IMG/VR virus record: IMGVR_UViG_3300031525_000002
Length of the DNA: 64,000 nt
Source of the DNA: an uncultured virus (IMG/VR IMGVR_UViG_3300031525_000002)
Lineage: Duplodnaviria > Heunggongvirae > Uroviricota > Caudoviricetes
Strand: one strand, 5' to 3'
Shown: piece after piece, positions 1,987 through 58,197 of the stretch
How positions within the stretch are numbered: the first letter of the stretch is position 1
Layout of the letters: each line of letters starts with the position of its first letter
Notes under the pieces: generated by a model
Seen by the model: only the letters and a program-made list of their open reading frames with translations
The model's database searches: none
Told to the model about the DNA's origin: nothing
Program-made: the position numbers and the translations under genes

Positions 1987-3603
1987 TCAGGTGCCTTGAA
2001 GAGCGAACCACGGTTGCACGAGAGCACTCCCCGTCCGCACGTAGTTGTTCGTCGAAGCAACGGCGATTGACGCTGGAAGCGCGGCAACCGTAGAAGTAGA
2101 ATAGCCGGCTAATACGGCTTTGGTGAGGTTGCCAGCCGGGTCAGCGATCAACGGAAAGCCCAACCCCGTTGCCTGACCTGCGATCGGTATCAGAGCGTAG
2201 GTGACGCTCGCCGTGTTCGCGTTGCTCCACGCCATCCCAAGCACATAGGGACCAGGTGTCATCGTCCAAGCGATGGCGACCGACCGGTATTGAACACCCG
2301 TGAATTGGCTCGACGATGCACTGGACCAGGAGAAGGCTCCAGACGACGACGTCGCAAGACTGAGCGCCGTACCGGCATTCACGGTGTACGCCCCCACGGA
2401 CATGGTCATCGACCCACTCGTGCCCGCGCTCGCCGAGACCTCCGCAAGGTACACGAACTCATTCGCGGTCATGCAGTAGTCGAGTATGAACGGCTGCAAG
2501 TAGAGTGTTCCGCTCGCCAAAAGCTGACCGCTACCCGTACCGGGAAAGCCTTGGACGAAGCTGGAGAATCCCCCGTACTGGGCCGTGATGGTTCCTACGC
2601 CCGCTCCGGTGCTGAGACCAAAAGTATATCCATTGGAGTTGGCAAACGTGAGACCGCTCAGAGCGTTGCTGGTACCACCTCCAGCGCTCACATTGAGGGC
2701 ATAGGACCCTGTCATCGTGCCGACGCCAGCACCCGTGCTGAGACCGAAGCTCACGTTGTTGGAGTTCGAGAACGTGATTGCGCTGAGGGCGTTGCTGGTA
2801 CCACCTCCAGCGCTCACATTGAGAGCGTAGGAGCCCGTCACCGTCGAGGCATTGAGTCCGAACGAAACGTTGTGAGAGTTGGAGAAAGTAAAGGCCGACG
2901 CCAGGTTGGAGGTTGTCCCGGCGCTGAGGTTGAAGCTTCCCTGCGTACTCGCGACCGTCACTGTCGCGGTCATCGTGCCGACGCCAGCACCCGTGCTGAG
3001 ACCGAAGCTCACGTTGTTCGAGTTGGAGAACGTGATCGCGCTGAGGGCGTTACTGGTCCCACCGCCAGCACTCACGTTGAGGGCGTAGGAAGCCGTGATG
3101 ACGGAACCGGCGATCCCGAACGAGACGTTGTTCGAGTTCGACAGCGTCGCCACGCTCACGGACGCGGTAAGCGTCGACGCGTTCAAGCCGAAGGAGACGT
3201 TGTTCGAGTTGGACCACGTCCATGCCGTGAGAGCGTTAGAGGTGGTCCCAGCGGAGATGTTGACGCTTCCGCCTCCGCCCGCCGCGACCGACGCCGTGAT
3301 CGTCGACCCGTTCAGACCGAACGAAACGCCGTTACTGTTGGAGAACGTGATCGCCGTCAGGTTGTTGCTGGTCGTACCCGCCGACACGTTCATGTTCGTC
3401 ATGAGCGTGCCCGTCCCCGAGAGCCAAAGCGTCTGGTTCGCCGTGGGAGCCCCCAGCACCGCGAGGATCCCCGCAGTGTTACTCAGCCCGAAGGTGAGCG
3501 TGCTCGCGAGGGAGTTGCCGATACCGAACTCTTCGCCGAGGAGATAGAGCGTGTCTCCACTGAGTTGGACGAGATCGTTGAAGTTTCCAGTGGTGTCGGT
3601 CAT
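1987..3603 (-). CDS. Fibre/adhesin-like repeat protein
   Basis: Multiple N[VL]SAG..TSN.L.A.TFSNSN.VSFGL repeats followed by a beta-rich C-terminal head. Confidence 0.65.
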   Translation of the reverse strand: MTDTTGNFNDLVQLSGDTLYLLGEEFGIGNSLASTLTFGLSNTAGILAVLGAPTANQTLWLSGTGTLMTNMNVSAGTTSNNLTAITFSNSNGVSFGLNGSTITASVAAGGGGSVNISAGTTSNALTAWTWSNSNNVSFGLNASTLTASVSVATLSNSNNVSFGIAGSVITASYALNVSAGGGTSNALSAITFSNSNNVSFGLSTGAGVGTMTATVTVASTQGSFNLSAGTTSNLASAFTFSNSHNVSFGLNASTVTGSYALNVSAGGGTSNALSAITFSNSNNVSFGLSTGAGVGTMTGSYALNVSAGGGTSNALSGLTFANSNGYTFGLSTGAGVGTITAQYGGFSSFVQGFPGTGSGQLLASGTLYLQPFILDYCMTANEFVYLAEVSASAGTSGSMTMSVGAYTVNAGTALSLATSSSGAFSWSSASSSQFTGVQYRSVAIAWTMTPGPYVLGMAWSNANTASVTYALIPIAGQATGLGFPLIADPAGNLTKAVLAGYSTSTVAALPASIAVASTNNYVRTGSALVQPWFALQGT

Positions 3604-56033: not shown

Positions 56034-56231
56034 CCTCCAACCAGCACCTCACGTTCCGCCTCCCGGTCACCGTCCGCGTCTCCACGGAAGAGATCGTTGG
56101 GCCCGCAGCGTGATGCCCGCGGAACCTATCCTCCAACCAACACCTCAACTCCTGCCTCCCGCCACCCCTGGGCGCATCGGCATCATCTGGCACTACCTCC
56201 AACCAACACCTCAACTCCTGCCTCCCGCCAC
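56034..56231 (-). CRISPR. Mini CRISPR array: two identical 36-bp repeats and one degenerate repeat
   Basis: GTGGCGGGAGGCAGGAGTTGAGGTGTTGGTTGGAGG at 56231..56196 and 56165..56130; degenerate copy at 56070..56034; spacers of 30 and 59 bp; adjacent to cas1. Confidence 0.85.
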
Positions 56232-56572
56232 CGAGAAGGTACGGCAGAAGTCCGCTGCCACAAGCTATTATTCAGCGTCCTCGATGCGTCTGCTTGGGCT
56301 GCTGCGATGCGCGTCTGAGCATGGTGCCCAACTACCGGCATCGACCAGACCACGGGCAGGTACCCGCGTCCGCAGATAACGACGACAGCGCCTCTCTCAG
56401 CCAGCGCTACCGCAACCTCGCTTGTGTATGTGCAGCCACGAGCCGTCACAATGACCGCTTGAATGTCATCGAGCGGGATGTGACCGAGTTCCTTGTCGGC
56501 CGCGCGTACGACCATGAAGCCGGCGTCGACGCTCAGCGAACGCCCATGCTCCGCGATCTCTACGACGTGCAT
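56183..56572 (-). pseudogene. cas1: Truncated Cas1 (N-terminal domain only, type II-C-like)
   Basis: VEIAEHGRSLSV..GFMVV..IPLDDI.AVI..G.TYT..ALAERG..VICG..LP..GHH.Q..AQ..LWQ; similarity ends near 56252 and the frame runs into the array. Confidence 0.85.
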
Positions 56573-58197
56573 GGTTTCCCCGGCTGCCTTCCGAGTTCTC
56601 GCCTGAGACCGTTCCATGCGACGATCTGGTCCGTCCCACGCGTGAACCCGCACTTCTCACACGTCCACGTCGGCGCCATCTGGCGCTCGGCGTGCACGTG
56701 CTTGCAATCGGGGCACCCGCGCGCGTCCCAGTGTGCGTCGAACTGCGCAAGCTCGACGGATGCAGTCGCGGCGGTGGCATCGCGCGTGGCACGCCCCTTG
56801 TCGTCCACGTAGATCTTCGCGCAGGCTTGCTTGATTCGGTCAAGCATCTTGGCGAACGGCCACTGCCTGAGCAAGGCCTGCACCACGTCCGGCACGTCGT
56901 CACCCATCTCCTTCGGGTTCATCTTCGCCACGAGGAGCTTGCTCACGCCACGGTTCACGCATTCGTTGGCAATCGACCTCGCCCAGACCTTGCACCGCGT
57001 ATCGACGAACCGGTCCTCGGCATCATCGATCTTCCTAAGCGCTGCAAACCGACGTCGTTTGCCTCGACCCCTGGCCCCGTCGCCGGCCTCCATCTGTCCC
57101 ATGTGTTCCCCGATGGAGACCTTACGCGCCTTCAGGCGCCTCTTGAATGCCACCACGTCGCCGCCATCAATCGTTCGGATGGACCCGTCAGCGAACACCA
57201 AGACGAGAGCGCTCCACACGCCTCGACGGAGCGCAGCGGTCGTGCCGACCAGTGGTCGCGACATCTTCCGCGTGAGGCGAATCGTCAGCTTCGCAAACCA
57301 CTGCTTCTTCCGCTCGGAATAGACGACCCGCGCGTCACATAGTTTCACGTCCTTCTCGCCCAGCATCCGCTTGGCGTACGCGTGCATGCTGGGTCCGTCA
57401 GGGATAACCGTGAATCCGCTCCGCGTGACCTTCTTGCCATCGGTGTCGAGTTCGAGCGTAAGGTTGTAGCGGCCCTTCGCATCGCCTCGGTCGAAAATCC
57501 AACTGCCATCACGCCACCGGATCGGCTGCCCAGCTCGGTAGGTGTCGTTGGATCGGTCACCTCGGAACGCTTCTTTCTTGTAGATCGCGTACCGCGACGC
57601 CGTGTAGCGCACCGCCGAGTCGTAGACCGATGATGGCATGCTGTTGGTCGCCTTGATGCGCAGGCTCGCGCATCGCTTCTGTGCGAACGTGAGACGCTTG
57701 CTCAACGTCACGGCCTCCTCCGTGCGCTCCTTCGAGCGGGCTCGGCCGAGGTCGACGCGAATCTTCTCGACCTCCGCCTCCGCCTTCGGCACCTGTTTCG
57801 ACCAGTAGTCGCGCTCGCGCTCGAGGAGCGCCTTGACCGCATCGGTCACAGGACCGCGTGCCAGCGTTTCCTTCTCCGGGTTTGTCTTCGACGCCACCTT
57901 GTCGGCGCGGTGCCACTCGCTAATGGCCGTATTGAGGACGCGGTGCATGCAGTCGCGCATCGCCCAAAGCCGATCGAACTTCTCTTGGTCGCCATCGTAG
58001 ATGACGGAGAACTGTACGACGACCGTGTCCTTGGTCTCGTCGCTCTCGGCACCGCCAGTCGCGCCGCCACCCGCCGGTTGCCCGGATTGAGGTGTTGGCT
58101 GCGGATTGGTTACCGCCTGCTTGGTGAGCGCTCGCTCATCCTTTAGGACCTGGAGCGGCCCTACAGTGACGGCGCGGCTGTCGGTGTCGAGTTTCAC
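56560..58197 (-). CDS. Cas12f/TnpB-like type V effector with degenerate RuvC
   Basis: RG.RS..TYR.GQPI, WFAKL, RGRGKRRR..E.RF, QWPF, CPDC..CEKCG..D..AWN; RuvC-I reads AALRRG and RuvC-II reads LLVAKM. Confidence 0.8.
   Translation of the reverse strand: MKLDTDSRAVTVGPLQVLKDERALTKQAVTNPQPTPQSGQPAGGGATGGAESDETKDTVVVQFSVIYDGDQEKFDRLWAMRDCMHRVLNTAISEWHRADKVASKTNPEKETLARGPVTDAVKALLERERDYWSKQVPKAEAEVEKIRVDLGRARSKERTEEAVTLSKRLTFAQKRCASLRIKATNSMPSSVYDSAVRYTASRYAIYKKEAFRGDRSNDTYRAGQPIRWRDGSWIFDRGDAKGRYNLTLELDTDGKKVTRSGFTVIPDGPSMHAYAKRMLGEKDVKLCDARVVYSERKKQWFAKLTIRLTRKMSRPLVGTTAALRRGVWSALVLVFADGSIRTIDGGDVVAFKRRLKARKVSIGEHMGQMEAGDGARGRGKRRRFAALRKIDDAEDRFVDTRCKVWARSIANECVNRGVSKLLVAKMNPKEMGDDVPDVVQALLRQWPFAKMLDRIKQACAKIYVDDKGRATRDATAATASVELAQFDAHWDARGCPDCKHVHAERQMAPTWTCEKCGFTRGTDQIVAWNGLRRELGRQPGKPCTS
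58072..58190 (-). ncRNA. Candidate tracrRNA overlapping the effector 5' end
   Basis: Anti-repeat CAGCCAACACCTCAATCC at 58101..58084; CTCCA at 58155..58151; hairpins including CCGG-GCAA-CCGG; boundaries approximate. Confidence 0.5.

Follow-up and report, generated by a model that had tools for sequence, protein, structure and literature searches.

A candidate tracrRNA in the probably translated 5′ end of a Cas12f-like effector gene predicted to be nuclease-dead

According to the available portions of the reports cited here, the tracrRNAs of type V-F systems typically form one long and one short duplex with the repeat (PMC11246509). The same source assigns the pseudoknotted two-duplex form to V-B, V-F and V-G, and gives Cas12k one duplex and a triple helix, so that an initial annotation of the present DNA, which had ascribed two duplexes to both Cas12f and Cas12k, was right for V-F and wrong for Cas12k. 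In AsCas12f1 and SpCas12f1 the tracrRNA is encoded between the effector gene and the array (PMC8548392), and that of SpCas12f1 is predicted to be closed by a head-to-toe stem (PMC12255294; PMC11641405); the catalytic positions of AsCas12f1 include D225 and E324 (bioRxiv 2023.07.03.547593). In Cas12n (V-N, V-U4) the tracrRNA lies inside the ORF, in the part encoding a disordered C-terminal tail (PMC12216341; bioRxiv 10.64898/2026.03.27.714800). Hoffmann et al. described dead Cas12f clades, with a sigmaE-linked and a CRISPR-array-linked cluster, that use single guides or intergenic RNAs (PMC13472631). The V-M (Cas12m), V-C, V-O and V-P effectors carry an inactivated RuvC domain, and silencing by DNA binding has been predicted or shown for them (PMC12669027).

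Here, a locus was analysed in which a structured RNA coincides with the start of a Cas12f-like effector gene. The RNA fold, the covariation of anti-repeats with repeats, the loss of RuvC residues and an open frame through the RNA are all shown by comparison of sequences. The reading preferred here, to which a probability of about 0.6 is given, is that a nuclease-dead, Cas12f-like system of type V derives its tracrRNA from the effector's own mRNA, at the translated 5′ end.

The effector and its locus

The window, that is the whole 64,000-nt stretch of DNA analysed, belongs to a contig of 132.8 kb, has a GC content of 65% and is phage-like, with endolysin, HNH, recombinase and tail matches in six of the 18 ORFs scanned. 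A tRNA and a tmRNA were also seen, at 41264-41336 and 41799-42144 (minus strand). The genes and array of the CRISPR locus are as follows.

58206..58212, minus strand: Shine-Dalgarno-like sequence, 8 nt upstream of the effector GTG
56560..58197, minus strand: Cas12f-like effector gene (545 aa), whose GTG start shares bases with the stop codon of the upstream ORF
56183..56572, minus strand: truncated type II-like cas1, about 105 cas1 codons running on into the first repeat (TIGR03639, E 4e-14)
56034..56231, minus strand: mini-array with 36-nt repeats, two of them identical and the third degenerate, and spacers of 30 and 60 nt

The effector gave weak matches to the TnpB and Cas12f zinc-finger families, both below the family cut-offs. 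Among solved structures, AsCas12f and further Cas12f1 proteins come closest to it, in the sequence profile as well as in the predicted fold. The profile comparison with AsCas12f gave an E-value of 1e-29 and the Foldseek comparison of the predicted fold with Cas12f1 one of 2.5e-21; the top fold matches were all AsCas12f, CnCas12f1 or OsCas12f, with TM scores by target of 0.55-0.68 and identities of about 15% in the structural alignments. No Cas12n entry appeared among the 16 solved-structure sequence matches. The predicted structure has the compact fold of V-F1 Cas12f, with WED, REC, RuvC and zinc finger regions. The D-E-D triad of V-F1 nucleases is not intact, as the RuvC-I Asp is replaced by Arg324 and the RuvC-II Glu by Ala424, residues that align with D225 and E324 of AsCas12f1; Asp523 of RuvC-III is retained and the C-terminal zinc finger is present. 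Moreover, among 26 aligned close homologs (29 matches minus three fragments) the RuvC-I Arg is found in all 26. In homologs the RuvC-II position is occupied by Ala, Ser or Pro. Together, these comparisons show a Cas12f-like protein that has lost two RuvC catalytic residues and is predicted to be nuclease-dead.

Most of the more distant relatives listed (P0034-P0170) have His, Arg or Asn in place of the RuvC-I Asp and keep the RuvC-II Glu; judged from these residues, they constitute a large group of dead Cas12f-like proteins. Virus Rctr197k (KX853510.1; L011:2713-4608) encodes a relative of 468 aa with a transposase-like annotation and a RuvC-I His; downstream of it come a structured gap of 240 nt and a CRISPR array of four repeats.

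The start of the truncated cas1 overlaps the last effector codons, its TIGR03639 score is below the family cut-off, and cas2 and a leader are absent. A longer cas1 together with cas2 is present in the related locus L005 and, by reading, in L002 and L009; the window locus, without most of cas1 and all of cas2, may be decaying. The repeat copies lie at 56231-56196 and 56165-56130 (minus strand), with the degenerate copy at 56069-56034. The second spacer (56070-56129), at 60 nt, is twice the length of the first and probably represents two spacers whose intervening repeat was lost. In the collections searched there was no credible protospacer, from which a PAM might be read, for the window spacers or for the L008 array: self-targets reached at most 16/20 within their own loci or the window, spacer 1 found nothing in species genomes and spacer 2 nothing in viral contigs, and the L008 array gave nothing against phage records beyond one match at E 0.3. 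A match of spacer 1 to 20 of 30 nt in a viral locus (L010), with the remainder unmatched and in a lower-GC ORF (labelled glycosyltransferase-like by reading), was rejected as probable chance.

In six of nine related loci a gene of about 200 aa with a C-terminal coiled coil lies, by reading, between the effector and cas1 or the array.

L005:3011-3604: accessory gene of about 200 aa, with similar ORFs in L004 and L006-L009

This gene is absent from the window and from L002. None of the three copies scanned matched a family above cut-off, and a feature search returned unnamed clusters together with DUF3102 as a lead (0.90-0.92). No sigma-factor match was found among the four neighbouring non-cas ORFs scanned. 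A further observation is that a CRISPR repeat, full or degenerate, overlaps the effector stop codon in three of the seven loci with a testable repeat.

L003:2681-2716: stop-codon repeat, 35/36 matches
L005:2962-2997: stop-codon repeat, 28/36 matches
L006:2209-2242: stop-codon repeat, 22/34 matches

The copy in L005 is solitary, 1.8 kb from the array, and the sequence that follows it is unmatched in its own locus. In L006 many short repeat-like copies are spread irregularly over 2200-3255, 35-97 nt apart and without a regular array, and both anti-repeats match them. The stop-codon repeat is possibly a regulatory repeat or a trace of repeat origin.

A structured RNA at the start of the effector gene

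The initial annotation had placed a candidate tracrRNA at 58072..58190. Its location was upheld and its extent was not, the element reaching from about 58195 to 58042. The parts of the RNA, from 5′ to 3′, are listed below.

58042..58195, minus strand: whole structured RNA (candidate pre-tracrRNA), about 150 nt over codons 1-52, with the paired core in codons 3-51
58166..58191, minus strand: 5′ arm of the closing (head-to-toe) stem, beginning 6 nt past the start codon's first base
58144..58163, minus strand: stem-loop 1, with the short anti-repeat in its loop; five of six pairs changed on both sides
58151..58155, minus strand: short anti-repeat AR1 (CTCCA), pairing with the 3′ end of the repeat in a predicted pseudoknot
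58123..58141, minus strand: stem-loop 2, the most conserved helix, from the consensus fold and covariation
58101..58116, minus strand: stem-loop 3, from the fold of individual loci and covariation
58084..58101, minus strand: long anti-repeat AR2, mostly unpaired in the folded RNA
58074..58085, minus strand: optional GCAA hairpin, found in six of nine loci
58045..58070, minus strand: 3′ arm of the closing stem, G-rich

The 18-nt anti-repeat at 58101-58084 (minus strand) reads as originally quoted, and recomputation returned the same pairing with the repeat, namely 15 contiguous pairs, one of them G:U, followed by a one-base bulge and three further pairs. The upstream CTCCA (58155-58151), which a 7-bp hairpin carries in its loop, and the GCAA hairpin after the anti-repeat (58085-58074) were likewise found where they had been described. 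With the array excluded, no other site in the 64-kb window, on either strand, matches the repeat as well as AR2 does; the AR2 15-mer occurs three times within one mismatch against 0.01 expected, and none of 100 shuffles reached three. The GCAA hairpin competes with the distal anti-repeat pairs, since its first two bases are the last two of AR2. No Rfam family was found at the element. Cofolding with the repeat, which had been proposed as a check, gave a divided result: with the closing stem intact the two-strand calculation showed almost no gain, the program being unable to draw pairs that cross this stem, and segment-wise duplexes, used in its place, support the pairing. Duplex energies for the whole region were uninformative because of the G-rich background.

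Comparative DNA came from one metagenome scan, which yielded nine loci, one identical to the window and the others 41-84% identical over the best segment; L001-L003 are close kin, as are L007 and L008. No related loci were confirmed in viral contigs or species genomes, and viral contigs searched with DNA patterns of the RNA core and of the repeat gave no match. Six loci have clear arrays with differing repeats. L006 has scattered short repeat-like copies, with repeat boundaries chosen by the analyst, and L002 and L004, with no array on their contigs, were excluded from the pairing tests, leaving seven of nine loci with a repeat to test.

In every tested locus a long anti-repeat complementary to the local repeat precedes the first conserved strand, and the first hairpin bears in its loop a short anti-repeat, of five bases, that complements the 3′ end of that repeat. 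AR1 varies with the local repeat in L005, L006, L007/L008 and L009. Both anti-repeats change with the local repeat in the seven loci tested, and the covariation that the initial annotation called for is therefore present. Indeed, among the 5040 permutations of anti-repeats against repeats the cognate assignment came first for AR2 and within the top 12 for AR1. In a stricter test for contiguous helices, five of seven loci had this site as their top-ranked one; the test failed in L005 and L008, which have bulged duplexes (45 and 276 of 300 shuffles).

A feature that the initial annotation had missed is a closing stem of about 26 alignment columns, joining the two ends of the RNA in all nine loci. 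Its arms lie just after the start codon and just before the conserved protein core, and in the consensus fold it encloses three stem-loops, the anti-repeat and the optional hairpin. The stem is 18-28 bp long in each of the nine loci, in sequences that are unrelated, and 23 of its 26 pairs show compensatory change. In seven of nine rows an arm pairs clearly best with its own partner; in L003 and L004 it pairs about equally well with the arm of a close relative. Over the whole structure 92% of cells are paired, as opposed to 36-45% when partners are slid by 1-3 columns, a score favoured by derivation of the consensus structure from the same alignment, and none of 500 shuffles equalled any measure. 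As the nine loci are related, these shuffle and permutation counts are not probabilities. Folded singly, the nine loci gave z-scores of -2.9 to -8.9. Moreover, a covariance model built from L004-L009 only, and so without the close relatives of the window, recovered the window element (58195-58042) at E 3.4e-23, the next match in the window being at E 0.095. The model gave no match at the 25%-identical relative in Virus Rctr197k. A weak second match in L005 (3224-3369; E 1e-4) falls inside the accessory gene and is probably due to chance.

Chance complementarity in GC-rich coding sequence might be suspected in a window of 65% GC, and the contiguous-helix test, taken alone, is not significant in L005 and L008. 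This explanation is contradicted by the covariation across loci with different repeats, as well as by the excess of the 15-mer over shuffles, the covarying stem, the cognate permutations and the leave-out covariance-model match, and its probability is close to nil. A second alternative is a purely cis-acting element, a switch within the mRNA that senses crRNA, permits or prevents translation of the effector, and at no point leaves the message to serve as a scaffold. In its favour, the fold of the mRNA leaves most of both anti-repeats unpaired, and signals for a separate transcript were not seen in the window. Against this, the succession of a short anti-repeat in a loop, stem-loops and a long anti-repeat is the V-F tracrRNA layout in the available text of PMC11246509, and Cas12f needs such a scaffold, for which the RNA model gave no second candidate in the window; a switch of this kind is accordingly rated very improbable. 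The comparative data show both the long and the short duplex of V-F1 systems. The position of the RNA is not that of V-F1, between gene and array, but at the 5′ end of the effector gene in all nine loci. On this sequence evidence the element is taken, with high confidence, to be a tracrRNA.

RNA and reading frame in the same sequence

The effector GTG has the best Shine-Dalgarno pairing of ten candidate starts (-12.3 kcal/mol, scored against the anti-Shine-Dalgarno motif). As the initial annotation had stated, there is no in-frame ATG or GTG between the anti-repeat and the first conserved strand; nor is there a TTG. Effector residues 1-52 are predicted to be disordered (pLDDT <50), and the Gly-rich, low-complexity character of the peptide follows from the G-rich 3′ arm of the closing stem. 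The first effector codons (58197-58162, minus strand) resemble an internal stretch at 57453-57424 (minus strand; KLDTDSRAVT and ELDTDGKKVT), which may be chance.

The overlap of the RNA with the translated 5′ end, also claimed at the outset, gains support from conservation of the frame. AR1 and the protein core are separated by a number of nucleotides divisible by three in eight of nine loci, and the frame is open through the RNA in eight of nine, with one stop in frame and 30 and 19 in the other two frames; shuffled versions of the region are stop-free 7-30% of the time per locus. In five of nine loci no in-frame ATG, GTG or TTG follows the anti-repeat. L005, L006 and L008 have an in-frame GTG downstream of the anti-repeat, and the Shine-Dalgarno pairing in these three loci is weak. 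In the window's subclade the N-terminal extension is present in 22/22 proteins, 20 of which start 9-16 codons before stem-loop 1, and its spacing to the core takes 13 distinct in-frame values; the subclades come from a quick-version tree and all proteins are gene-caller predictions. P0176, which is 95% identical to the window protein and known from protein alone, is longer by three codons in each of the two stem arms, which fits joint preservation of stem and frame. The five proteins of the sister subclade are mixed, and in L007 (protein P0022) the RNA lies in an untranslated leader, with the protein's own ATG after it. Since the extension is predicted to be disordered, the constraint most likely lies on the RNA and on keeping the frame, rather than on the peptide.

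The layout of L007 raises the alternative that the RNA lies in an untranslated leader throughout, the extension being a gene-calling artefact and the protein beginning near the first conserved strand at a non-standard codon. The disorder of the extension fits this account, as do the chance of an open frame in any one locus (0.07-0.30) and the differing frames of some sister-clade proteins such as P0026. It does not, however, explain why the frame is open in eight of nine loci through many in-frame indels, why the extension recurs in 22/22 subclade proteins, why the window has a strong Shine-Dalgarno sequence and a coupled start, or how the protein would begin in the five loci without a downstream ATG, GTG or TTG, and it is considered improbable. 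A translated overlap of RNA and reading frame in the window's subclade is thus held with only slightly less confidence than the identity of the RNA itself. From the aligned sequences, RNA structure and reading frame are conserved together and appear to be under double selection.

Long N-terminal tails are also seen in the distant relatives P0110, P0113, P0125, P0134 and P0128, two of them with a trace of an L009-like peptide. The embedded RNA may therefore extend beyond the subclade, to distant relatives with long tails.

Proposed mechanism and comparison with known systems

Between 55900 and 62200 of the window no promoter-like site and no minus-strand terminator-like site were found. A sigma-70-like promoter lies upstream of both the start codon and the RNA in L004, L005 and L008; the scan used the sigma-70 consensus only and missed L007. 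The simplest reading is of one transcript with two fates, being either translated or folded, bound and trimmed to the tracrRNA. If a ribosome loads while the 3′ arm has yet to be transcribed, it would translate through the element and melt the fold, giving an effector with a disordered tail of about 52 residues. The folded transcript would hide its own initiation region in the closing stem, bind effector and crRNA, and then be trimmed to the tracrRNA by a host nuclease. A host enzyme is invoked because a dead RuvC should not process RNA, and RNase III is the first candidate because the closing stem is long. Free effector would stabilise the folded state, providing a negative feedback that balances protein against tracrRNA. 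The complex would bind DNA without cutting it, as V-M and V-C effectors do, and binding without cleavage is its most likely activity.

The positions of the stem arms are consistent with this scheme. The 5′ arm begins between -3 and +18 nt from the start codon in the eight translated loci, and in L007 it is the 3′ arm that covers the Shine-Dalgarno sequence and ATG. In both layouts the folded RNA would thus overlap or adjoin the stretch used for ribosome initiation. Like the initial annotation we infer autoregulation, to which the closing stem over the initiation region adds a structural basis; translational feedback on the effector is given an even chance.

RNase III acts on stems of about two helical turns, a length that the closing stem, at 18-28 bp, has in nine of nine loci. 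In the available text of PMC6212723, the E. coli enzyme prefers A-U/U-A at the D/D′ positions and WSSW at the centre. This pattern is not enriched in the nine stems relative to shuffled pair order (P 0.26), with a full match in two of nine and three of six positions in the window, the rules coming from a different host of lower GC. RNase III as the processing enzyme is a tentative assignment, somewhat below even odds.

A real tracrRNA could also overlap the ORF passively, through genome compaction, with a purely structural stem, its own start site or unregulated trimming, and no feedback. Since the head-to-toe stem is structural in SpCas12f1, at least in the available text of PMC12255294, the closing stem needs no regulatory reason; moreover, the E. 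coli RNase III pair pattern is not enriched in the nine stems, and the accessible portions of the Cas12n reports describe an ORF overlap and mention no autoregulation. What speaks against passive overlap is that the stem keeps its 18-28 bp despite unrelated sequences, that it overlaps or adjoins the initiation region whether the RNA is translated or not, and that the window has no internal promoter-like site. Passive overlap is considered unlikely. The fullest form of the preferred reading, an undescribed dead Cas12f-like clade in which the tracrRNA is overprinted on the effector start, protein or scaffold is made on an either/or basis, the effector locks the stem and the whole is a promoter-independent, self-balancing cassette, is put just short of an even chance.

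If true, such a cassette could drop into any phage operon, and the untranslated form of L007 and the translated form of the subclade would represent two stages of overprinting. One cassette of 150 nt bears on the matching of protein to scaffold and on scaffold processing for an effector that does not cut, and provides a clean case of RNA structure and reading frame held together under selection. Searches for tracrRNAs between effector and array, or in C-terminal tails as in the available text of bioRxiv 10.64898/2026.03.27.714800, would miss this class. In practical terms, the system offers a naturally dead, putative DNA-binding core of about 490 residues with a defined scaffold.

The closest described systems are the V-F1 Cas12f1 nucleases, which are nearest in sequence and fold and share the two duplexes, an RNA of about 150 nt and, in SpCas12f1, a predicted head-to-toe stem. 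V-F1 nucleases work as asymmetric homodimers on a single guide and use a T- or C-rich PAM. In contrast to these proteins with their active RuvC, two catalytic residues are replaced here and the RNA lies in the 5′ coding region; several loci also carry type II-like cas1, cas2 and the extra gene of about 200 aa. The RNA would work like a Cas12f1 tracrRNA, and the system falls outside V-F1 on catalysis and on tracrRNA position.

With Cas12n (V-N) and the omega-RNA of TnpB the locus shares an overlap of guide scaffold and effector ORF at a disordered end of the protein, as far as the available text of PMC12216341, PMC11641405 and bioRxiv 10.64898/2026.03.27.714800 describes them. The overlap is N-terminal here and C-terminal there, so that the locus mirrors the 3′ overlap of TnpB and Cas12n, and the Cas12n and TnpB nucleases are active, whereas the RuvC triad here is not intact. 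A C-terminal overlap means that processing leaves the start of the message intact, whereas excision of an N-terminal RNA would sever the start codon from the rest of the coding sequence.

Like the dead Cas12f clades of Hoffmann et al., the proteins are inactive Cas12f homologs, some beside arrays, and there is a weak match to 9n9c. Those clades are C-terminally truncated (365 aa in 9n9c), the sigmaE type using a single guide without tracrRNA and the others intergenic RNAs upstream of arrays. The present effector, by contrast, is a full-length protein that carries a zinc finger and has point substitutions; no adjacent sigma factor gene was seen. In place of the C-terminal truncation, single guide RNA and adjacent rpoE of the sigmaE-linked proteins, it keeps the RuvC-III Asp and is accompanied by a separate array and anti-repeats. 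An inactivated RuvC is also shared with V-M, V-C, V-O and V-P, with V-M being more distant in fold (Cas12m2, TM 0.38).

A literature search returned neither a tracrRNA in a 5′ coding region nor this clade, which may yet be listed in supplements or in the original Cas12n, TranC, SpaCas12f1 and TnpB/Cas12 classification papers. Overall, each ingredient of the system has a precedent, and what appears to be new is their combination, together with an N-terminal placement that would tie production of the scaffold to loss of the message.
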